Positions 22,530 through 38,274 of a DNA stretch of 64,000 nucleotides are shown here, piece by piece (the first letter of the stretch is position 1; every line of letters begins with the position of its first letter). The notes under the pieces were generated by a model. It was not told the DNA's origin and did not search any database. It saw only the letters and a program-made list of their open reading frames with translations. The translations under genes were made by a program, and so were the position numbers. Source of the stretch: Alphaproteobacteria bacterium (lineage in GTDB: Bacteria; Pseudomonadota; Alphaproteobacteria; JAVJRE01); the NCBI GenBank assembly GCA_040218575.1, contig JAVJRE010000005.1:26419-90418 (forward strand). Reading direction: 5' to 3'.

Positions 22530-22841
22530 CGCGGCATGATGGGGCCGGCCCGGGCGCGCCTCAAGCGCGGACGCCAGCAGACCGATGCCGGCAGACCGAT
22601 GGAAGGGCGCGCCGGGCCGGCGGCAGTCAGGAGCGACGCCTGGCCACACTCTGTGACAATCGGCCCGGCTGTCAGTGGAGGCCGGGCGGAACGCAGGGCA
22701 ATTGGCCCGCCATGACCGGCGGTACAGGAATTGGTCCATGGAGTCTGGACCAATCATCCGCCGCCTCGCCTTTCCAAGAGCACCGTCGGTGGGCATGATC
22801 TGCCAAGTTCATGTGGCCGGGAAACGCAGGAGCCTGACGCG

Positions 22842-22961
22842 GTGACCGAGCTCTTGTTTCGCGGTCTCATCGCGGCGGGCCTTGTGGTGCTGATCCTGAC
22901 TGGACTGGGTCTGGCCGGCTGCGAGATCACCATTCCCGTATTCACGGGCAAGACCTACTGA
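22842..22961 (+). CDS. Possible micro-lipoprotein (39 codons, lipobox LAGC, 13-residue mature part)
   Basis: GTG at 22842 lies 9 nt after AGGAG. Translation: VTELLFRGLIAAGLVVLILTGLGLAG|CEITIPVFTGKTY. Prediction rests on signal-peptide logic only. Confidence 0.3.
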   Translation: MTELLFRGLIAAGLVVLILTGLGLAGCEITIPVFTGKTY

Positions 22962-23052
22962 ACCGATCCGGCCCGCAGAGGCCGGCGGCAGACCACAATC
23001 GACAACTGGCCAGGCCGTTTGCGCCCACGCGGCCGACGAGGGAGAGCATGAG

Positions 23053-23652
23053 ATGATCCTTTTCGACACGCTGCGTTCCGGCAACGCCTGGAAAGTGCGC
23101 CTGTTGTTGCGCAACATGGGGCAGGACTTCGAACGCAAGACCCTGGACCTGGCCAAGGGCGACACCAAGACGCCTGAATATCTGGCCATGAGCCCGCGCG
23201 GCCAGGTGCCGGTAATGCAGTTCGATGACGGCACCTATCTGGCCCAGTCGCCAGCCATCCTGGCCCGCATCGCCGAGGGCACGACATATTTTCCGGCCGA
23301 CCCGGTGACCCGCAACAAGATTCTGGAGTGGATGTTCTTTGAACAGTGCGACCTGCTGAAGCCGCTGGCCATTCCCCGCTTCATCGTCGCTCTGGCTGGC
23401 CAGGGCGAAGAAAAGGCCGATGTGGTGAAACAATTCCAGGACCAGGGCTATCCCATGCTGGCCATAATGGAAAAGCGTCTGGCGAAAAGCGATTTCCTGG
23501 TGAATGGCTATTCGATCGCCGACATCAATCTCTACCCCTATACCAGCATGGCGCATCTGGGGAATTACGACATGGACCGCTTTCCGGCCATTCAAGCCTG
23601 GATCAAGCGGGTCGAATCACAGCCGGGCTGGGTGCCGTTGATCGAAGAGTAG
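23053..23652 (+). CDS. Glutathione S-transferase family protein
   Basis: 199 aa. Thioredoxin-like N-domain (SGNAWKVRLLL..., GQVPVMQFDDGTYLAQSPAIL) followed by a helical C-domain. Confidence 0.75.
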   Translation: MILFDTLRSGNAWKVRLLLRNMGQDFERKTLDLAKGDTKTPEYLAMSPRGQVPVMQFDDGTYLAQSPAILARIAEGTTYFPADPVTRNKILEWMFFEQCDLLKPLAIPRFIVALAGQGEEKADVVKQFQDQGYPMLAIMEKRLAKSDFLVNGYSIADINLYPYTSMAHLGNYDMDRFPAIQAWIKRVESQPGWVPLIEE

Positions 23653-23692: not shown

Positions 23693-25351
23693 ATGACCAT
23701 GGCTGCCACGCGTACGCTTCGCCGCCCCAACGTCAATATCAAGGCCACCACCGGCACCCAGTTGCGCTGCAAGAGCTGGCGGGCGGAGTCCATCCTCCGC
23801 ATGCTGGAGAACAATCTGGAGAATGGCGAGAATCCGGACGAGCTGGTGATCTATGCCGGCCGGGCCAAGGCAGCGCGGGACTGGGAAAGCTATGACCAGA
23901 TCGTCGCCGCGCTGAAAATACTGGAAGAAGACCAGACCCTGGTCATGCAGTCGGGCAAGCCGCTTGGCGTCTTCCGCACCCAGAAGTCCATGCCCATGGT
24001 GATCATGGCGTCGGGCGGTGTGGTCGGCGCCACCAACCGCGACCCCATTCACCAGGAACTGGAAGAAAAAGGCCTGACCATCATGCCCGGCATGACGGCG
24101 GCCGCATGGCAGTACATCGGCAGCCAGGGCATCCTGCAGGGCACCTACGAGACCTTCATGGCGGCGGCGCGGGAGAACTTCGGCGGGACGCTGGAAGGCC
24201 GCATGGTGCTGACCGCCGGCTGCGGCGGCATGGGCGGCGCCCAGCCGCTGGCCGGCAAGCTGGCCGGTGCGGCGACTCTGGTTCTGGACGTGGATGAAGA
24301 CCGCATTCAGCGGCGCATCGACTCCGGCTATTGCGACGTCATGACCCACGACCTGGACGAAGCCCTGAAGTGGATCGACGAAGCCAAGAAGGCGCGCAAG
24401 GGCAAGTCGGTGGGCCTGGTGGCCAATGTGGGTGATATCTATCCGATCCTGCTGGACCGCAACATCATTCCTGAGATCGTCACCGACCAGACCACCGTAC
24501 GACCGGGCCGCGGCTACGTCCCGCAGGGCATGACCTCGGACGAGGCCTACGCCATGTTCGACACGGACCGGGAACAGGTGGTGCGGCGGGGCCACGCCAC
24601 CATCAAGATCCATGCCCAGTGCATGATGGAGTTCGAGAAGCGGGGATCAATCGTCTTTGAGTATGGCAACGGTCTGCGCCTGGAGGCGGAAGCCGCCGGC
24701 TATCCCGAGGCCCGCAAGATGCGCGGCTTCATCGAGCGCTATGTGCGGACGCTGTTCGAAGAGGGCAAGGGCCCGTCGCGCTGGCTCGCCATCTCCGGCG
24801 ACCCGCACGACATCGAAGTGGTTGACGACATCATCGAGGCCAACTGGTCGGACAACAGCTCCATCGTCCAGTGGATCCGCCAGGCCCGCGAGCACGTGCA
24901 CTTCACCGGCCTGCCGGCGCGTATCGGCTGGCTCGGCTATGGCGAGCGCGCCAAACTGGCCAAGCTGGTGAATCAGGCGGTGAAAGAGGGCAAGACCAAG
25001 GGCCCCATCGCCTTCACCCGCGACCATCTGGACTCCGGCTCCACCGCCATCCCCTTCCGCGAGAACGAGAAGATGATGGATGGCTCCGACCGTATCGCCG
25101 ACTGGCCGATCCTGAACGGACTCATCAACGCCTGTTCCGGCGCCGACGTGATTGCCATTCACGGTATCGGCTCGGCCGGTCAGACCACGGTGGCCGACGG
25201 CAGCGATGATGCCGGCGAGCGGCTGGAGCGGGTGATGACCACCGACACCGGCATCGGCGTCCTGCGCCATGCGGAAGCCGGCTATGAGACCTCCAAGAAA
25301 CTGGCCAATGAGTCTGGCCTGGCGGCGTCTGTCGCCGGCCGCAAATACTAA
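23693..25351 (+). CDS. Urocanate hydratase-family protein, divergent paralog 1
   Basis: 552 aa. WRAESILRMLENNL, QSGKPLGVFRT, GMTAAAWQYIGSQGILQGTYETF, GCGGMGGAQPLA (NAD site), TRDHLDSGS and GVLRHAEAGY match the urocanase fold. Several loops differ from canonical HutU as I remember it. Confidence 0.85.
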   Translation: MTMAATRTLRRPNVNIKATTGTQLRCKSWRAESILRMLENNLENGENPDELVIYAGRAKAARDWESYDQIVAALKILEEDQTLVMQSGKPLGVFRTQKSMPMVIMASGGVVGATNRDPIHQELEEKGLTIMPGMTAAAWQYIGSQGILQGTYETFMAAARENFGGTLEGRMVLTAGCGGMGGAQPLAGKLAGAATLVLDVDEDRIQRRIDSGYCDVMTHDLDEALKWIDEAKKARKGKSVGLVANVGDIYPILLDRNIIPEIVTDQTTVRPGRGYVPQGMTSDEAYAMFDTDREQVVRRGHATIKIHAQCMMEFEKRGSIVFEYGNGLRLEAEAAGYPEARKMRGFIERYVRTLFEEGKGPSRWLAISGDPHDIEVVDDIIEANWSDNSSIVQWIRQAREHVHFTGLPARIGWLGYGERAKLAKLVNQAVKEGKTKGPIAFTRDHLDSGSTAIPFRENEKMMDGSDRIADWPILNGLINACSGADVIAIHGIGSAGQTTVADGSDDAGERLERVMTTDTGIGVLRHAEAGYETSKKLANESGLAASVAGRKY

Positions 25352-25414
25352 CATCAGAGCCTTTGACAAGACTCCCGGGGAAACTGGGAACCACAACAGA
25401 CAGGAGGGCGGACC

Positions 25415-27064
25415 ATGGCGGTCGGCACGCTGAAACGTAAGAACGTCAGTATCAAAGCCACCACCGGCACTCAGTTGCGCTGCAAGAACTGGCGGGCGGA
25501 GTCCATTCTCCGCATGCTGGAGAACAATCTGGAGAATGGCGAGAATCCGGACGAGCTGGTGATCTATGCCGGCCGGGCCAAGGCGGCGCGGGACTGGGAA
25601 AGCTATGATCAGATCGTCGCTACCCTGAAGTCGCTGGACGAAGACCAGACCCTCATCATGCAGTCGGGCAAGCCGATCGGTGTCTTCCGCACCCAGAAGA
25701 CTGCGCCCATGGTGGTCATGGGCAATGGCAACGTCGTTGGTATGGACTTCGGCGATCCGATCCGTCAGGAGCTGGAGGATAAGGGCCTGACCATCATGCC
25801 CGGCATGACGGCGGCCGCATGGCAGTACATCGGCAGCCAGGGCATTCTGCAGGGCACCTACGAGACCTTCATGGCGGCGGCGCGGGAGAACTTCGGCGGG
25901 ACGCTGGAAGGCCGCATGGTGCTGACCGCCGGCTGCGGCGGCATGGGCGGCGCCCAGCCGCTGGCCGGCAAGCTGGCCGGTGCGGCAACTCTGGTGCTGG
26001 ACGTGGACGAGAAGCGCATTCAGCGGCGCATCGACTCCGGCTATTGCGACGTCATGACTCATGATCTGGACGAAGCGCTCAAACTGATCGACGAAGCCAA
26101 GAAGGCGCGCAAGGGCAAGTCGGTGGGCCTGGTGGCCAATGTGGGTGACATCTACCCGATCCTGCTGGAGCGCAACATCACACCGGACATCGTCACCGAC
26201 CAGACCACAGTGTGGGCCGGTCGCGGTTATGTCCCCCAGGGCATGACCTCGGACGAGGCCGTGGAAATGTTCCGCACCAACCGCGAGGAAGTCATCAAAC
26301 GCGGCCATGCGACCATCAAGATCCATGCCCAGTGCATGATGGAGTTCGAGAAGCGGGGATCAATCGTCTTCGAATATGGCAACGGCCTGCGCCTGGAGGC
26401 GGAAAAGGCGGGTTATCCCGAAGCCCGCCAGATGCGCGGCTTCATCGAGCGCTATGTGCGGACCTTGTTCGAGGAGGGCAAAGGTCCGTCGCGCTGGCTG
26501 GCCATCTCCGGCGACCCGCACGACATCGAGGTAATTGACGACATCATCGAGGCCAACTGGTCGGACAACAGTTCCATCGTCCAGTGGATCCGCCAGGCCC
26601 GCGAGCATGTGCACTTCACCGGTCTGCCAGCGCGTATCGGCTGGCTTGGCTATGGTGACCGGGCCAAGCTGGCCAAGCTGGTGAATCAGGCGGTGAAAGA
26701 GGGCAAGACCAAGGGTCCCATCGCCTTCACCCGCGACCACCTGGACTCCGGCTCCACCGCCATCCCCTTCCGCGAGAACGAGAAGATGAAGGACGGCTCC
26801 GACCGCATCGGTGACTGGCCGATCATCAACGCCCTGCTGAACACCTGCTCCGGCGCCGACGTGATTGCCGTCCACTCCGGCATGAGCGCCGGCCAAACCA
26901 CCGTGGCCGATGGCAGCGACTCGGCCAGCGAAAGGCTGGAAGCGGTGATGAACGCGGACACCGGCATCGGCGTCCTGCGCCATGCGGAAGCCGGCTATGA
27001 GACGTCGATGGATCTGGCCAATTCGACCGGCCTGGCAGCGACCATCCCGGACCGCAAATACTAG
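25415..27064 (+). CDS. Urocanate hydratase-family protein, divergent paralog 2
   Basis: 549 aa, collinear with paralog 1 (about 88% identical by manual alignment). AGGAGG lies upstream of the ATG at 25415. Confidence 0.85.
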   Translation: MAVGTLKRKNVSIKATTGTQLRCKNWRAESILRMLENNLENGENPDELVIYAGRAKAARDWESYDQIVATLKSLDEDQTLIMQSGKPIGVFRTQKTAPMVVMGNGNVVGMDFGDPIRQELEDKGLTIMPGMTAAAWQYIGSQGILQGTYETFMAAARENFGGTLEGRMVLTAGCGGMGGAQPLAGKLAGAATLVLDVDEKRIQRRIDSGYCDVMTHDLDEALKLIDEAKKARKGKSVGLVANVGDIYPILLERNITPDIVTDQTTVWAGRGYVPQGMTSDEAVEMFRTNREEVIKRGHATIKIHAQCMMEFEKRGSIVFEYGNGLRLEAEKAGYPEARQMRGFIERYVRTLFEEGKGPSRWLAISGDPHDIEVIDDIIEANWSDNSSIVQWIRQAREHVHFTGLPARIGWLGYGDRAKLAKLVNQAVKEGKTKGPIAFTRDHLDSGSTAIPFRENEKMKDGSDRIGDWPIINALLNTCSGADVIAVHSGMSAGQTTVADGSDSASERLEAVMNADTGIGVLRHAEAGYETSMDLANSTGLAATIPDRKY

Positions 27065-27087: not shown

Positions 27088-27117
27088 GGGCGCCGGAACA
27101 CCACCGGCGCCCTTTTT
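27088..27117 (+). terminator. Rho-independent terminator after urocanase paralog 2
   Basis: GGGCGCCGG-aacacca-CCGGCGCCC followed by TTTTT. Confidence 0.8.
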
Positions 27118-27130
27118 CGTTGCTATTTAA

Positions 27131-27145
27131 TAGGCGACCGGTCTA
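27131..27145. promoter_or_regulatory. Candidate TetR operator 1 (TAGGCGACCGGTCTA)
   Basis: 11 nt upstream of the tetR-family ATG. Matches site 2 at 13 of 15 positions, and the shared flank continues as (C/T)TTTT. Confidence 0.45.
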
Positions 27146-27155
27146 CTTTTTCCTG

Positions 27156-27740
27156 ATGGCAGGACAAGATACCCGTATGCGACTGATCGAAGCCGGCGCC
27201 CAGTTGATCTGGGCCCAGGGCTTCCACGCTACCGGACTGGCTGAAATCCTCGCGGCAGCCGAAGTTCCCAAGGGCAGTTTCTACCATTTCTTCGCGGACA
27301 AGGCCGCCTTTGGCCTGGCGGTTATTGACTGGTTTGCCGCAGAGCGCCTGACTGATCTGCAGGACGCCCTGGCCCGTGACGATCTGAAACCGCTTGACCG
27401 CCTGCGGGCCTATTACCAGGACAGCCACCGCACTCAGATGGCGCTCGGCCCGGAGAATGGCAGCCCCCTTGGGAATCTGGCCCTGGAGCTGGGGCGGCCC
27501 GGCAATCCCTTCGCCGCCGCCATCACCATCGCCTTGCAGCGCGAGCAGACTCTTGTCATGCACTGCCTGGCAGAGGCAAAGGACAGCGGCCAGTTGCCGG
27601 CCGGGGTCGAACCGGAAGGAACCGCCCGCTATCTTCAGGCGGCCTGGGAGGGCGCGGTGCTGCAGATGAAAGTGACCGGCGGCGCAGAACCCCTGGATGC
27701 TTTTCTGGCACTAAGCTTCGGCCGCCTGTTACAGTCTTGA
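27156..27740 (+). CDS. TetR/AcrR-family transcriptional regulator
   Basis: N-terminal HTH: RLIEAGAQLIWAQGFHATGLAEILAAAEVPKGSFYHFFADK. Confidence 0.85.
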   Translation: MAGQDTRMRLIEAGAQLIWAQGFHATGLAEILAAAEVPKGSFYHFFADKAAFGLAVIDWFAAERLTDLQDALARDDLKPLDRLRAYYQDSHRTQMALGPENGSPLGNLALELGRPGNPFAAAITIALQREQTLVMHCLAEAKDSGQLPAGVEPEGTARYLQAAWEGAVLQMKVTGGAEPLDAFLALSFGRLLQS

Positions 27741-27748
27741 AGCATAAC

Positions 27749-27763
27749 TAGACGACTGGTCTA
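27749..27763. promoter_or_regulatory. Candidate TetR operator 2 (TAGACGACTGGTCTA, near-perfect palindrome)
   Basis: 6 of 7 arm positions pair around a central C. Lies between the tetR stop and the ABM gene ATG at 27782. Confidence 0.45.
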
Positions 27764-27781
27764 TTTTCAATGGAGAGTTCT

Positions 27782-28069
27782 ATGAGCCGCATCGCCCTTG
27801 TTGTCACCGTGGATGTCGCAGACGGTCAGCGTGACGCGCTGCTGGACATCCTGCGCCATCATGCGGCACGCAGCCTGTCGCTGGAGACCGGCTGCCTGCA
27901 GTTCGACATTCTGCTGCCGGAGGACAAGCCCGGCCGTATCATGATCTTCGAGTTGTACCGCAACCCCGCCGCCCTGGAGGCACACCGCGCCTCCGAACAC
28001 CTGAAGCGCTGGCGGACGGAATCAGCCAGCATTCCGCACACCATCGACGTGGTGGTCTGCCAGGCGTGA
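27782..28069 (+). CDS. Antibiotic-biosynthesis-monooxygenase (ABM, ferredoxin-like) family protein
   Basis: 95 aa: RIALVVTVDV...CLQFDILLPEDKPGRIMIFELYRNPAALEAHRASEHL. GGAGAG precedes the ATG at 27782. Confidence 0.7.
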   Translation: MSRIALVVTVDVADGQRDALLDILRHHAARSLSLETGCLQFDILLPEDKPGRIMIFELYRNPAALEAHRASEHLKRWRTESASIPHTIDVVVCQA

Positions 28070-28791
28070 CTTCCGGGCACAGTGGCGGCGACGGCGGCGC
28101 GCCAGATGGCGGCGGATGCGACCGGTGCGACGGTCGGCGCGGAGACCAGGGCGGCGGTTCGGACCATAGTCCCCGACCAACGCGGAACTGGGCGGCATAC
28201 TATGCCGGGCGCGGCCTGCGCCCGCCCCATGACACAGTGTGCTTTGTCCTAGACCAGGCAGCCGCCCCGCAGGGCAAGCGAACGGCCGCACAGGACGCGC
28301 CGCTGGCGATGGACCTCGGCTGTGGGGCCGGGCGCGACAGCCTGGCCCTGCTGGCCGCCGGCTGGCGTGTCATCGCCATTGACCGCCAGCGCGAGGCCAT
28401 GGCTGAGCTGGAGCGCCGCGTACCGCCGGCGCTTCGCCACCGCCTGGAGCCGCGAACGGGCGACATTCGGACCGAACCATGGGGCAGCGCTGATCTGGTG
28501 GTGGCCAGCTTTGTCCTGCACACCCTGGCGCCGCCCGACTTTCGGGCTCTGTGGGCGACCATTCCGGCAAGCCTGCGTCCGCGCGGCCGTTTTGCCGGAC
28601 ATTTCATCGGTAAGCACGACACCTGGGCGGGACGTGATGACATGTCCACCTTCAGCCGGGACGATCTGCACCACCTGCTGAACGGGCTCGAGGTCGAGTT
28701 TTGGGCCGAACGGGAGAATGACGGCGAGACGGCAACCGGCCGCGCCAAGCACTGGCATGTCCACCACATCGTTGCCCGGCGCACCGCCTGA
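28066..28791 (+). CDS. Class I SAM-dependent methyltransferase (TehB-like), Gly/Asp-rich N-terminus
   Basis: Motif I is AMDLGCGAGRDSLALLAAGWRVIAIDRQ. GTG at 28066 overlaps the ABM stop (GTGA). The exact start is uncertain. Confidence 0.65.
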   Translation: MTSGHSGGDGGAPDGGGCDRCDGRRGDQGGGSDHSPRPTRNWAAYYAGRGLRPPHDTVCFVLDQAAAPQGKRTAAQDAPLAMDLGCGAGRDSLALLAAGWRVIAIDRQREAMAELERRVPPALRHRLEPRTGDIRTEPWGSADLVVASFVLHTLAPPDFRALWATIPASLRPRGRFAGHFIGKHDTWAGRDDMSTFSRDDLHHLLNGLEVEFWAERENDGETATGRAKHWHVHHIVARRTA

Positions 28792-28815: not shown

Positions 28816-30135
28816 TCAGCCCCAGCGCACGGCCTCGGTCGCCATCCAGGCCGCCTCGCCTTGTGTTGTCTGGCGGTCCAGCGCCTTGTTGCGCCAGGGA
28901 AATCGACCGAACAAAGCGATGGCCTCATGATGGTGGCGGGCGCTGGCCTGAGCGAATCGATGCTCCGGTTCCTCGCCGAGACCAGCAAACAGACGAATCG
29001 ATATCTCCTGATCGGCCAGGTCTTCGCTGTGCTCAAAGGGCAGATAGAAGAACCAGCGATGAACCGGCAGCACATGGCGGTCGAAGCCATGCATGATCGC
29101 ATGTCGCGCCACCTGGCGCGCCTTTGCGTCGGCCGCATGAGCCGCCGACGTGCCGCGGTAGAGGTGACGGGAGACCTGATCCAGCAGAACAATCAAGGCC
29201 AGGCATAAGGCGGGCTTTGCCGCCCACTCGTCCAACCGGCCAGCCACCGCCGCGCCGTGCAGATCGCTGAATGCCGCACGGATGGCATCATCCTGCTGGC
29301 GCCCGTGCTCGAACCACACAACGCGCCGGGCGCCATAGCCGGTTTCACCGGGCCTGAGAAACCAGAACGTCAGCACGTCCCGTGCCGCCGCCGGTACGTC
29401 CCCGTCCTGCAACGCGTCCGCCACCGCATCGCCAAAGACCGAGGCGGCGGGGCGCGGCACCGGCGGCAGAACGATGGGCCCCTGATCGGGCTCGTCACCG
29501 GGCGATTCGCCCCAGCGAATCCGTGTGGCGATCTGATAGGCCCGCTCTTCCGCTGTTGATTCGCGGCCCAGTGCGTCATTGCGCAACGGATAGCGACCGA
29601 AGCGGAAGACGGTCTCCTGGTGGGCGATGGCGCCGGCAATGGCGGAGAGGCTTTCGGAATCCTCCCCCAGCTCGCGGTACAGACCGACCGAACGATCCTG
29701 ATCGGCCAGGTCCTCGCTGTGCTCGAACGGCAGATAGAAAAACCAGCGCTGGACCGGCAGCACATGACGATCCCAACCGCGCAGCACCGCATGGCGGGCC
29801 AGCGCCCGGGCGTCGGCGTCACGGGCGAAGGCGCGCCCCTCGCCGCGGAACATGTTCCGTGAGAACTGATCGTAAAGAATGATGTTGGCGAGACAAGTGG
29901 CCGGATGGTCCCGCCAATGGGCCAGCGCACCGGCCTCGGCCTCAGCAAAGGTTGCAGAAAAACGCTGCCGGATAGTGGAGTCTATGGCATCACCGCCGGC
30001 AAACCACAGACGGCGGGAGACGCCCCACAGGGAGGAGTCCGGCCGACCGAACCAGAAGGTCAGGATGTCGGCGGCCGTATGGGGCAGGTCATCCAGGTCA
30101 TGGGACAGCCGGTCTGTCACCCACGCACCCATCAT
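28816..30135 (-). CDS. Protein with two tandem DUF924 domains
   Basis: Two copies of the pattern ILTFWF...WF...LDQFSRN(M/L)(F/Y)RG...F(F/L)YLPFEHSEDL...FGR(Y/F)P(L/W)RN. ATG at 30135 overlaps the upstream stop (ATGA). Confidence 0.75.
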   Translation of the reverse strand: MMGAWVTDRLSHDLDDLPHTAADILTFWFGRPDSSLWGVSRRLWFAGGDAIDSTIRQRFSATFAEAEAGALAHWRDHPATCLANIILYDQFSRNMFRGEGRAFARDADARALARHAVLRGWDRHVLPVQRWFFYLPFEHSEDLADQDRSVGLYRELGEDSESLSAIAGAIAHQETVFRFGRYPLRNDALGRESTAEERAYQIATRIRWGESPGDEPDQGPIVLPPVPRPAASVFGDAVADALQDGDVPAAARDVLTFWFLRPGETGYGARRVVWFEHGRQQDDAIRAAFSDLHGAAVAGRLDEWAAKPALCLALIVLLDQVSRHLYRGTSAAHAADAKARQVARHAIMHGFDRHVLPVHRWFFYLPFEHSEDLADQEISIRLFAGLGEEPEHRFAQASARHHHEAIALFGRFPWRNKALDRQTTQGEAAWMATEAVRWG

Positions 30136-30806
30136 GACGCGGATGAACCCGATGCGTTGCGTCGCGCCGCCTGTTCGGCCCGCCACCGGGCGCGCTGCTC
30201 CTCCAGCTCCTTCAGATACTGTGCCTCTTCAGCGGTTGTCTGGCGGCCGAGCGCGGCATTGCGGTAAGGAAAGCGGCCGAAGCGCGCGATCTCGTCATGG
30301 TGGCGCTGAGCCTGGCGCATGGTCATGTCACCGTCACCGTCAGGCGAGCCGTCCACCAGCGATCCGAACAGCTCCAGGGCACGCTTCTGAATGGCGATGT
30401 CTTCGCCATGCATGAAAGGCATGTAGAGGAAGAGCCGCTCATAATAGGACAACGCCGTATCGCCGCCGCTGGCGATTGCCGCGCCGGCCAGTTGGCGCGC
30501 CCGTGCATCCGTTTGGAAGGCACGGCCGTCATCGCGGAACATGTTGCGCGAGAACTGATCGAACAGAATGACCAGGGCGAGCGTCCCGCGCGGCGACCCG
30601 GTCAGCTCATCCAGTTGCCCGGCGGCGGCGGCTTCATAGGCCGGTCCGAAGCGGCGGCGGATTTCCTCGTCCACCGCCGGACCGCCGGCGAACCAGTGGT
30701 CGCGGCGGCGGCCATGTTCGCCATGGCCGGCCGGCGCGAACCAATAGTCCAGAACGTCCCGCGCCACCGCCGCAGGATCGAGCGGCGCAGCGGTCTCAGC
30801 GCTCAT
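30132..30806 (-). CDS. DUF924 family protein (single domain)
   Basis: VLDYWF...HWFAGG...LFDQFSRNMFRD...FLYMPFMHGEDI...FGRFPYRNAALGR. ATG at 30806 overlaps the upstream stop (ATGA). Confidence 0.75.
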   Translation of the reverse strand: MSAETAAPLDPAAVARDVLDYWFAPAGHGEHGRRRDHWFAGGPAVDEEIRRRFGPAYEAAAAGQLDELTGSPRGTLALVILFDQFSRNMFRDDGRAFQTDARARQLAGAAIASGGDTALSYYERLFLYMPFMHGEDIAIQKRALELFGSLVDGSPDGDGDMTMRQAQRHHDEIARFGRFPYRNAALGRQTTAEEAQYLKELEEQRARWRAEQAARRNASGSSAS

Positions 30807-31165
30807 GCGGCGACCAGCGCGCGCAGGCCTTCGAGCCTGAGTGGCAACGGCACACCGAGCCACAGACAATTGACCGCATGGTCGGCGTAAGCGTCGTCTG
30901 TATTGGGGTGAACCAGGATGTCCAGGTCGCGGCGGTTCAGCATCAGCCAGGGCACCAGCCGGTCAAACTGATCATTGGCGAAGGCCACCTGATACATGGA
31001 CTGAGGGTGCGGCCCGACGGGCGCCTCGCGCCAGCGGCCCATGACCACCCGGAACCTCTGCTCGATTTCCTGGCGCAGCCACTCCGCCACCGGCCGGCTG
31101 GCTCCGTCGTAGTAGATGTGCGCGTGAAAACCGTCGATATCGGACTCGTCGCGTGGCTGATCCAT
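30803..31165 (-). CDS. DOPA 4,5-dioxygenase-family protein
   Basis: 120 aa: FHAHIYYD...PVGPHPQSMYQVAF...VPWLMLNRRDLDILVHPNT.D...DH...LWLG. GGAGAGG RBS before the ATG at 31165. Confidence 0.65.
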   Translation of the reverse strand: MDQPRDESDIDGFHAHIYYDGASRPVAEWLRQEIEQRFRVVMGRWREAPVGPHPQSMYQVAFANDQFDRLVPWLMLNRRDLDILVHPNTDDAYADHAVNCLWLGVPLPLRLEGLRALVAA

Positions 31166-38198: not shown

Positions 38199-38274
38199 TG
38201 GCGTCCCCTACGGGAATCGAACCCGTGTTTCCGGCGTGAGAGGCCGATGTCCTGGACCGCTAGACGAAGGGGAC
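38199..38274 (-). tRNA. tRNA-Glu (anticodon CUC), CCA encoded
   Basis: The reverse complement folds by hand into a cloverleaf: acceptor GTCCCCT/AGGGGAC, D stem GTCT/GGAC, anticodon stem TCGGC/GCCGG with loop CTCTCAC, T arm ACGGG-TTCGATT-CCCGT, discriminator G plus CCA. 76 nt. Confidence 0.92.

Follow-up and report, generated by a model that had tools for sequence, protein, structure and literature searches.

We wanted to know why a stretch of alphaproteobacterial DNA should carry two closely similar genes of the urocanase family side by side, and what their products might act on. The stretch, called here the window, comprises 64,000 nucleotides of contig JAVJRE010000005.1 (assembly GCA_040218575.1). 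Both genes, URO1 (copy 1) and URO2 (copy 2), are named 'urocanate hydratase' in public records. We found that the pair is non-canonical: it descends from the clade of S-methyl thiourocanate hydratases and not from HutU. Judging from the sequence comparisons reported below, we lean towards the view that the two products catalyse a hydration of modified urocanates that depends on nicotinamide adenine dinucleotide (NAD+), and that they would be functionally distinct from each other through copy-specific loops. The public annotation probably names the wrong substrate.

Two collinear genes with mosaic DNA

A preliminary description of this DNA had reported two collinear urocanase-family open reading frames (ORFs), 63 nt apart and about 88% identical, and our alignment agreed: 484 of 548 residues were identical (88%, BLASTP), with no internal gaps. 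The likely start of URO1 is ATG 23699, which gives 550 aa and was indicated by the spacing of the ribosome-binding site (RBS) and by the public database gene call. In the codon alignment 215 of 1650 nt differed (87.0% identity); 396 codons were identical, 89 differed only synonymously and 65 nonsynonymously. The mosaic structure of the DNA, which had also been described, was borne out. The clearest gene-conversion tract (Table 1) contained 1 difference in 203 nt, and the longest identical run was 140 nt (permutation mean 42; 0 of 10,000 permutations reached 140). Positions 24599-24657 of URO1 were identical to their URO2 counterpart, and divergent blocks went down to 64-75% identity. The peptide patches quoted earlier were all there as stated, and so were the NAD-site GCGGMGGAQPLA and the motif RDHLDSGS, each of which we found in both copies. 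No promoter or terminator was predicted within the 63-nt spacer at 25352-25414.

Such a pair could be an assembly artefact, in which one gene present in two strain variants was placed twice in a row. Chimeric single-gene versions on short contigs (P0273, and P0274 on L014) would fit this origin. However, we observed the same arrangement on contigs of 40 kb and 353 kb. An independent contig from a metagenome-assembled genome (L001) differed from the window by 1 nt across 21.6 kb, and a separate metagenome contig (L002), on which copy 1 precedes the beginning of a copy-2-type gene, independently spans the junction between the copies. Since both contigs show the same arrangement, and given the distinct spacer and the separate RBS of each copy, we conclude that the tandem pair is not an assembly artefact and leave that explanation next to no probability.

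Placement of the pair in the urocanase family

All three Pfam urocanase domains (PF17391, PF01175 and PF17392) were detected in order in URO1 and URO2 (E 1e-36 to 1e-72). The best NCBIfam model for the pair was S-methyl thiourocanate hydratase, NF058531 (846.8 bits for URO1 and 854.4 for URO2), although its cutoff of 880 was missed. The thiourocanate hydratase model NF058530 gave 654 and 663 bits, short of its cutoff of 930. The hutU model TIGR01228 gave 635 and 644 bits and its cutoff of 375 was passed, yet it scored lowest of the three urocanase-family models; the latter two models lay about 200 bits below NF058531. Nine other clade members that we tested all passed NF058531 (883-979 bits), and because the pair fell just short we place its lineage at the outer edge of this family. 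P0274, a protein of the ortholog lineage, scored 858.9.

The structural comparison gave the same order. The best PDB matches were 8Q9V/8Q9U (URO1 against 8Q9V, E 9e-193), followed by 7NED and then by canonical urocanases. The AlphaFold2 model of URO1 (predicted local distance difference test score 85.9, predicted template modelling score 0.87) had template modelling (TM) scores of 0.90-0.92 to 8Q9V, 7NED, 2FKN and 1UWK, the value of 0.92 being that to 8Q9V/8Q9U. In a neighbour-joining tree of 63 sequences, both copies grouped with the metagenome protein P0003 on a long branch (bootstrap 100). This group was nested in the 33-sequence clade that contains 8Q9V (bootstrap 100), outside the canonical HutU and 7NED clades. 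In a database of 5.8 billion protein clusters only three clusters exceeded 62% identity, namely the two window proteins and P0003, and scans of GTDB representatives (best 50%) and of metagenomes (best 59%, a fragment) added no further members of the lineage; in a search of representatives at 50% identity the whole clade fell under one representative. The lineage is thus a rare side branch within the modified-urocanate hydratases, which have been characterised only since 2021-2024. The preliminary description had called the pair non-canonical kin of thiourocanate-type hydratases. Profiles, PDB matches and tree agree with this, but it had missed that, among characterised enzymes, the closest is specifically the S-methyl thiourocanate hydratase of Variovorax sp. 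RA8 (54% identity).

We considered whether the genes could be a duplicated canonical hutU serving histidine catabolism, with the other hut genes elsewhere in the genome. The passed TIGR01228 cutoff and the public name speak for this, and the pair has in common with canonical HutU of P. putida (1UWK/1UWL) the three-domain fold, residues E44, Y52, T133, R362 and D443 (P. putida numbering, used throughout and verified against 1UWL) and the NAD motif. However, identity to canonical HutU was 44-46%, the hutU model ranked last, and the pair lay outside the canonical clade with bootstrap 100 in the phylogeny that the preliminary description had suggested as a check. The canonical motifs listed in that description (ANSNLVPHW, DQTSAHDP, FCRGxGPFRW and HHGGGVGMG) do match canonical HutU at 8 loci and in PDB 1UWL, while ANSNLVPHW, DQTSAHDP and HHGGGVGMGFSQH were absent from the pair. 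At canonical loci hutH was adjacent to hutU in 7 of 8 cases, and none of the 8 had a homologue of the glutathione S-transferase (GST) gene that stands beside our pair. The window has no hut operon; the earlier statement that hutH, hutI, hutG/F and hutC are missing from the 64 kb agreed with Pfam and tblastn. We regard a duplicated HutU as largely refuted and very improbable.

Thiourocanate hydratase of Paenibacillus, which acts in ergothioneine catabolism (7NED; NF058530), has the same fold and NAD+ site as the pair (TM 0.91) and represents a further case of a urocanase taken over for a 2-thio-substituted urocanate. It belongs to a separate clade. Both DQTSAHD and the long GGGGYAGYMTSAG loop are retained in 7NED, whose PxRETE loop carries I-M where R-E would stand.

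Conserved and altered residues

Both copies kept E44, Y52, T133, R362, D443 and R455 together with the GxGxxG NAD motif, and the ortholog likewise has E44, Y52, T133, R362, D443 and the NAD motif. These five residues are reported to be catalytic or carboxylate-binding (Kessler et al. 2004). Since the catalytic residues and the NAD motif are retained, URO1 and URO2 are probably both active.

The pair shares with the 8Q9V clade the motifs MxNGN, PGMTAAAW and TRDHLDSGS, the one-residue deletion in DQxxx-xP and a shortened HG..SAG hairpin. In the pair this hairpin is the shortest in the family, 4 residues shorter still than that of S-methyl thiourocanate hydratase, and it corresponds to the patch 3 loop, which forms a hairpin in the AlphaFold2 model. 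Among 136 columns that were at least 90% conserved in 47 family members, the lineage departed from the consensus at 10. The altered near-invariant columns include F361S, T457N, P352T and W112, which is replaced by T in copy 1 and by D in copy 2; F361, T457 and W112 were 93-100% conserved in 30 clade sequences. The Asn that replaces Thr457 lies two residues past the Arg mutated in PDB 8Q9U (R450A). D269 is R in copy 1 and W in copy 2 and in the ortholog. These changes at F361, T457, W112 and D269, and the missed cutoff, set the pair apart from S-methyl thiourocanate hydratase. The preliminary description had singled out FEEGKGPSRW. The ortholog reads FCEG, and FEEG is not a trait of the lineage; GPSRW held up as lineage-wide, as did RENE.

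At the column equivalent to S106, urocanases have S, thiourocanate hydratase has C and the S-methyl clade has G. Patch 1, one of three stretches in which the copies diverge (Table 1), flanks this column, reading A-S-G-G in copy 1, G-N-G-N in copy 2 and A-N-G-N in the clade. The position of patch 1 next to it suggests that this patch may border the specificity pocket.

Concerted evolution of the two copies

We compared both window copies with the copy-1 ortholog of L002/P0003. In the scaffold, synonymous divergence (dS) between the window paralogs was 0.16-0.29, while between copy 1 and its ortholog it was 0.45-0.61. The suggestion of the preliminary description that gene conversion homogenises the scaffold is supported by these values. 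In codons 136-195 identity was 0.99-1.0 between the copies and 0.89-0.93 between copy 1 and the ortholog. Site patterns were heterogeneous across regions (chi2 = 88.9, df = 12, p = 8e-14): the odd one out was the ortholog in the scaffold, copy 2 in patches 1 and 3, and copy 1 in patch 2. At the N-terminus both window copies read IKATTGTQLRCK, and both copies of the other, metagenomic lineage read IKAQRGTELRCK. Copy 1 and P0003 were sisters in the neighbour-joining tree (bootstrap 99), and therefore the duplication is older than the split of the lineages and conversion has been ongoing since.

The patches behaved differently from the scaffold. In patch 1, dS between the copies was 1.19 and nonsynonymous divergence (dN) 0.29, and between copy 1 and the ortholog dN was 0.027 with a dN/dS ratio (omega) of 0.07. 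In patch 3 the corresponding values were dS 0.76 and dN 0.215 between the copies, and dN 0.012 and omega 0.013 towards the ortholog. Patches 1 and 3 are old, copy-specific, conserved between orthologs and constrained as strongly as the scaffold. Patch 2 has a mosaic history, as the copy-1 ortholog was nearer to copy 2 (dS 0.46) than to copy 1 (0.92). Of the earlier proposal that selection keeps the patches distinct, the part concerning patches 1 and 3 stood, in the form of purifying selection, and the part concerning patch 2 did not. Conservation of patches between orthologs, together with conversion in the scaffold, supports the view that two non-equivalent proteins are being maintained.

Concerted evolution with selectively retained differences between tandem paralogs is known from the primate L/M opsin genes and from bacterial tufA/tufB. 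As in those cases, conversion homogenises most of the sequence here, and a few segments are paralog-specific and conserved across lineages. Unlike in those cases, the retained segments are enzyme loops, and the comparison covers two lineages. The pair is a clean natural case of gene conversion running alongside maintained paralog-specific segments, and these segments provide an experimentally tractable map of loops to swap.

Chimeric alleles were seen on short contigs (L014; P0273, P0271). P0274, encoded on L014, combines a copy-1 N-terminus and patch 1 with a copy-2 patch 3 and C-terminus, and P0273 is a copy 2/copy 1/copy 2 mosaic. The gene order on L014 (L014:1-2644, JGI 3300036808) is GST, a single urocanase, terminator and ABM. 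These alleles are either true recombinants or deletions, or the result of chimeric assembly across identical tracts.

The preliminary description had asked whether relatives also occur as tandem pairs, and we found that arrays recur in sister lineages. In the nearest sister group of the pair, locus L015 (P0011; L015:2-3866, GCA_009772125.1) carries a tandem pair of urocanases with 73% identity between them, and a divergent HAL-type lyase gene and an arginase-family gene flank the pair; residues ~35-97 are missing from the second copy, which is read through from the first. Locus L016 (P0013; L016:2-3643, JGI 3300066662) has three tandem urocanase-family genes on one 3.6-kb contig. Two of them are 86% identical and belong to the S-methyl thiourocanate clade, and the third is thiourocanate-hydratase-like (61% to 7NED; DLTSAHDALYGY). 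The paralogs of L015 and L016 differ in the same loops as URO1 and URO2, and paralogs cluster by locus with 100% support. We also checked 21 other urocanase loci of 10 kb or more, none of which had a second copy.

A glutathione S-transferase partner

The GST gene upstream of URO1 had been mentioned earlier as a mere flank. We observed that GST is a conserved partner of urocanases of the S-methyl thiourocanate type, a point overlooked in the preliminary description. A GST gene stood beside DUF917 and urocanase genes in 6 of 6 inspected clusters of this type (L012, L013, L017/L018, L030, L031). L030 and L031 are plasmids of Lichenihabitans psoromatis and Agrobacterium tumefaciens, respectively, and their GSTs were assigned by annotation and position. 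The window GST was 42-45% identical over its full length to those of L012, L013 and L017/18 and 91% identical to that of L014, while identity to the other GST of the window was only 29% over 85 aa. As a rule the clusters further include an M20/Zn hydrolase, an amidohydrolase, a HAL-type lyase and an ABC transporter, and the DUF917 proteins of L012 and L013 passed NF058532 (S-methyl thiohydantoin desulfurase). In the window, by contrast, neither a HAL-type lyase, an imidazolonepropionase-type amidohydrolase, an arginase-family protein nor DUF917 was found in the 64 kb (Pfam on gene calls and tblastn). The window keeps the GST-hydratase core of this cluster type, with the hydratase duplicated and the rest not local; the tandem, concertedly evolving state of the hydratase is a further difference.

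None of the libraries searched assigned a function to this GST, whose regular association with S-methyl thiourocanate clusters is brought to light here. Its nearest solved structures are uncharacterised structural-genomics GSTs, PGAP names the cluster GSTs just 'glutathione S-transferase family protein', and the best NCBIfam match was maleylacetoacetate isomerase at 68 bits (cutoff 171), a weak resemblance to MaiA. Its N-terminal RSGNAWKVRLLL weakly resembles the zeta-class signature. A glutathione-dependent cis/trans isomerase of the acrylate can be taken as a lead only.

Some related clusters carry further genes of interest. UbiD-family decarboxylase genes occur in two of the S-methyl thiourocanate-type clusters (L012:2134-4145; L017:339-1844), L012 with a UbiX-like flavoprotein gene as well; since UbiD acts on acrylic acids, this suggests a side route for thiourocanate-type acrylates. 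On the A. tumefaciens plasmid pAtAF1_95 (L031:10632-12971) a molybdopterin S/N-oxide reductase gene directly follows the urocanase gene, a hint that sulfoxides of the substrate are processed there.

Proposed function and alternatives

In the mechanism we propose, the host would be an uncultured marine-type alphaproteobacterium that transcribes GST, URO1 and URO2 as one operon. URO1 and URO2 would be active enzymes of the urocanase fold that carry out NAD+-dependent hydration. By analogy with the urocanase family, each may bind an imidazole-acrylate through the conserved Tyr/Thr/Arg carboxylate clamp; bound NAD+ would act as electrophile, and addition of water would yield an imidazolone- or thiohydantoin-propionate. 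The substrates would be modified urocanates, most likely ring- or thio-substituted, because several otherwise invariant positions are remodelled and two loops shortened in this lineage. Plain urocanate would not be among them, and S-methyl thiourocanate probably not either. Recurrent gene conversion keeps the scaffold near-identical, while two loop-containing patches, under purifying selection, have been copy-specific since before the lineage split; we read this as a sign that both enzymes are maintained and are not equivalent, with a difference in either substrate preference or kinetic role. GST, as the conserved accessory enzyme of the clade, may carry out some glutathione-dependent step. 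With near-invariant residues altered, this lineage offers a concrete lead towards a new substrate class in catabolism of the thiohistidine/ergothioneine type.

A more specific version of this proposal is tentative, and we consider it rather unlikely. According to it, URO1 and URO2 would hydrate two modified urocanates not yet characterised in a short glutathione-dependent route, with the loops setting the two specificities and GST replacing DUF917, that is, performing carbon-sulfur or isomerisation chemistry in place of the missing desulfurase. Candidate substrates would be marine thio- or seleno-histidine derivatives and oxidised or glutathione-linked products of ergothioneine.

Several results weigh against two functionally distinct enzymes with new substrates. 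The shortfall in NF058531 was only 26-33 bits and some accepted members scored merely 883-892, so that the pair may simply be divergent S-methyl thiourocanate hydratases. Patch 2 (TVRPGRG / EAYAMF...) was not consistently copy-specific, as the copy-1 ortholog has the copy-2-like version. There was no signature of positive selection in the patches (paralog omega 0.25-0.28). Differences between the copies showed no enrichment at columns separating canonical from clade sequences (Fisher odds ratio 0.47, p = 0.13) and lay in generally variable columns of the clade (entropy 1.67 vs 0.93), as drift would give. The usual partners, namely the DUF917 desulfurase, lyase, hydrolases and transporter, were absent from the 64-kb window. 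Finally, a single ortholog lineage was compared, with 43 aa of its copy 2.

The main rival builds on some of these points. In it both proteins are ordinary S-methyl thiourocanate hydratases, kept as redundant isozymes or as a dosage duplication, and the patches are tolerated loop variation that has become too different to pair for conversion. The best model and structure are those of this enzyme, the pair lies inside its clade and the conserved GST partner is present, all of which would be expected, as would the small shortfall in bits and the variable columns just described. However, F361, T457 and W112 are all changed here, and they were unchanged in four DUF917-linked urocanases that we aligned. 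DUF917, adjacent in all six inspected clusters, is not nearby. Between orthologs the patches were under the same degree of constraint as the scaffold (omega 0.01-0.07), which is unexpected for freely tolerated loops. We therefore consider this rival unlikely, although it stands ahead of the other alternatives.

Another alternative is an obligate heterodimer, or a pair in which one partner is regulatory or non-catalytic, the patches being interface elements or elements of asymmetric function. Urocanase is reportedly a homodimer whose core domain forms the interface, and this, the apparent co-transcription of the genes and the purifying selection on copy-specific patches, which would fit co-adapted interfaces equally well, favour it. 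On the other hand, both copies keep every catalytic and NAD-binding residue checked, patch 1 flanks a column that tracks the known substrate classes, and to our knowledge no heteromeric urocanase has been described. We think this arrangement improbable and prefer two hydratases that each act on a modified urocanate.

Probable operon and genomic surroundings

The coordinates of the features are given in Table 1. GST, URO1 and URO2 look like one operon because of the 40-nt and 63-nt gaps between them and the strong terminator after URO2. The TetR, ABM and methyltransferase genes (27177-28791) look like a transcription unit apart from it. On L014, an ABM gene 78% identical to that of the window follows the urocanase gene, and the body of TetR (window 27113-27691) is missing.

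Table 1. Positions of the tandem pair, its notable segments and its neighbours in the window
Feature	Position	Strand	Description
URO1 (copy 1)	23693-25351	+	552-aa ORF; predicted urocanase-family NAD-dependent hydratase
URO2 (copy 2)	25415-27064	+	549-aa ORF; predicted paralogous hydratase, 88% identical to URO1
URO1/URO2 spacer	25352-25414	+	63 nt; RBS AGGAGG for URO2
Clearest gene-conversion tract	URO1 24071-24273, partner URO2 25784-25986	+	spans core MPGMTAAAW...GCGGMGGAQPLAG
Patch 1 of URO1	23969-24067	+	aa 93-125, ...MASGGVVGATNRD...; beta-strand end, loop, helix start
Patch 1 counterpart in URO2	25682-25780	+	...MGNGNVVGMDFGD...
Patch 2 of URO1	24458-24592	+	aa 256-300, DQTTV-R-PGRG, EAYAMFDTDREQVVRRG; URO2 counterpart 26171-26305
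Patch 3 of URO1	25073-25243	+	aa 461-517, shortened beta-hairpin turn IHGIGSAGQ
Patch 3 counterpart in URO2	26786-26956	+	VHSGMSAGQ
Ser362 of URO1 (Ser359 of URO2)	24776-24778	+	replaces Phe361, 98% conserved in the family; adjoins carboxylate-binding Arg
Asn458 of URO1 (Asn455 of URO2)	25064-25066	+	replaces near-invariant Thr457, P-x-R-E-T-E loop
GST gene	23053-23652	+	Pfam GST_N/GST_C; probable first gene of the operon; ends 40 nt before URO1
Intrinsic terminator-like hairpin	27088-27120	+	9 G-C pairs and T run, after URO2; hairpin kept in L014
TetR-family regulator	27177-27740	+	Pfam TetR_N; system membership uncertain
ABM-domain protein	27770-28069	+	Pfam ABM; conserved downstream neighbour; system membership uncertain

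The best NCBIfam match of the TetR protein was AcuR, the acrylate regulator (125 bits, under the cutoff of 247). An AcuR-like TetR beside enzymes for acrylate-bearing rings is suggestive but weak. An operator-like palindrome, TAGRCGACYGGTCTA, occurs exactly at 27131-27145 before TetR and at 27749-27763 before ABM, and nowhere else in the 64 kb, including upstream of GST. We rejected control of GST-URO1-URO2 by this TetR, as the palindrome is not upstream of GST.

No riboswitch or other RNA element was found near the operon. The intergenic region upstream of GST is 523 nt long (22530-23052) and may contain a small hydrophobic ORF near 22843-22962; it gave neither a predicted sigma-70 promoter nor an Rfam match.

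The rest of the window is an ordinary alphaproteobacterial chromosome, with aroC, sppA, dxs, ispA, xseB, an HDAC-family gene, purA, glmM, folP, ftsH, tilS, tol-pal and ruvABC. Recent horizontal transfer was considered, and the composition and codon score were native-like. On the minus strand at 28816-31165 there are two adjoining DUF924 genes, which overlap by about 55 nt, followed by a gene of the DOPA-dioxygenase family. The sole RNA gene detected in the window was tRNA-Glu(CTC) at 38199-38274, also on the minus strand.

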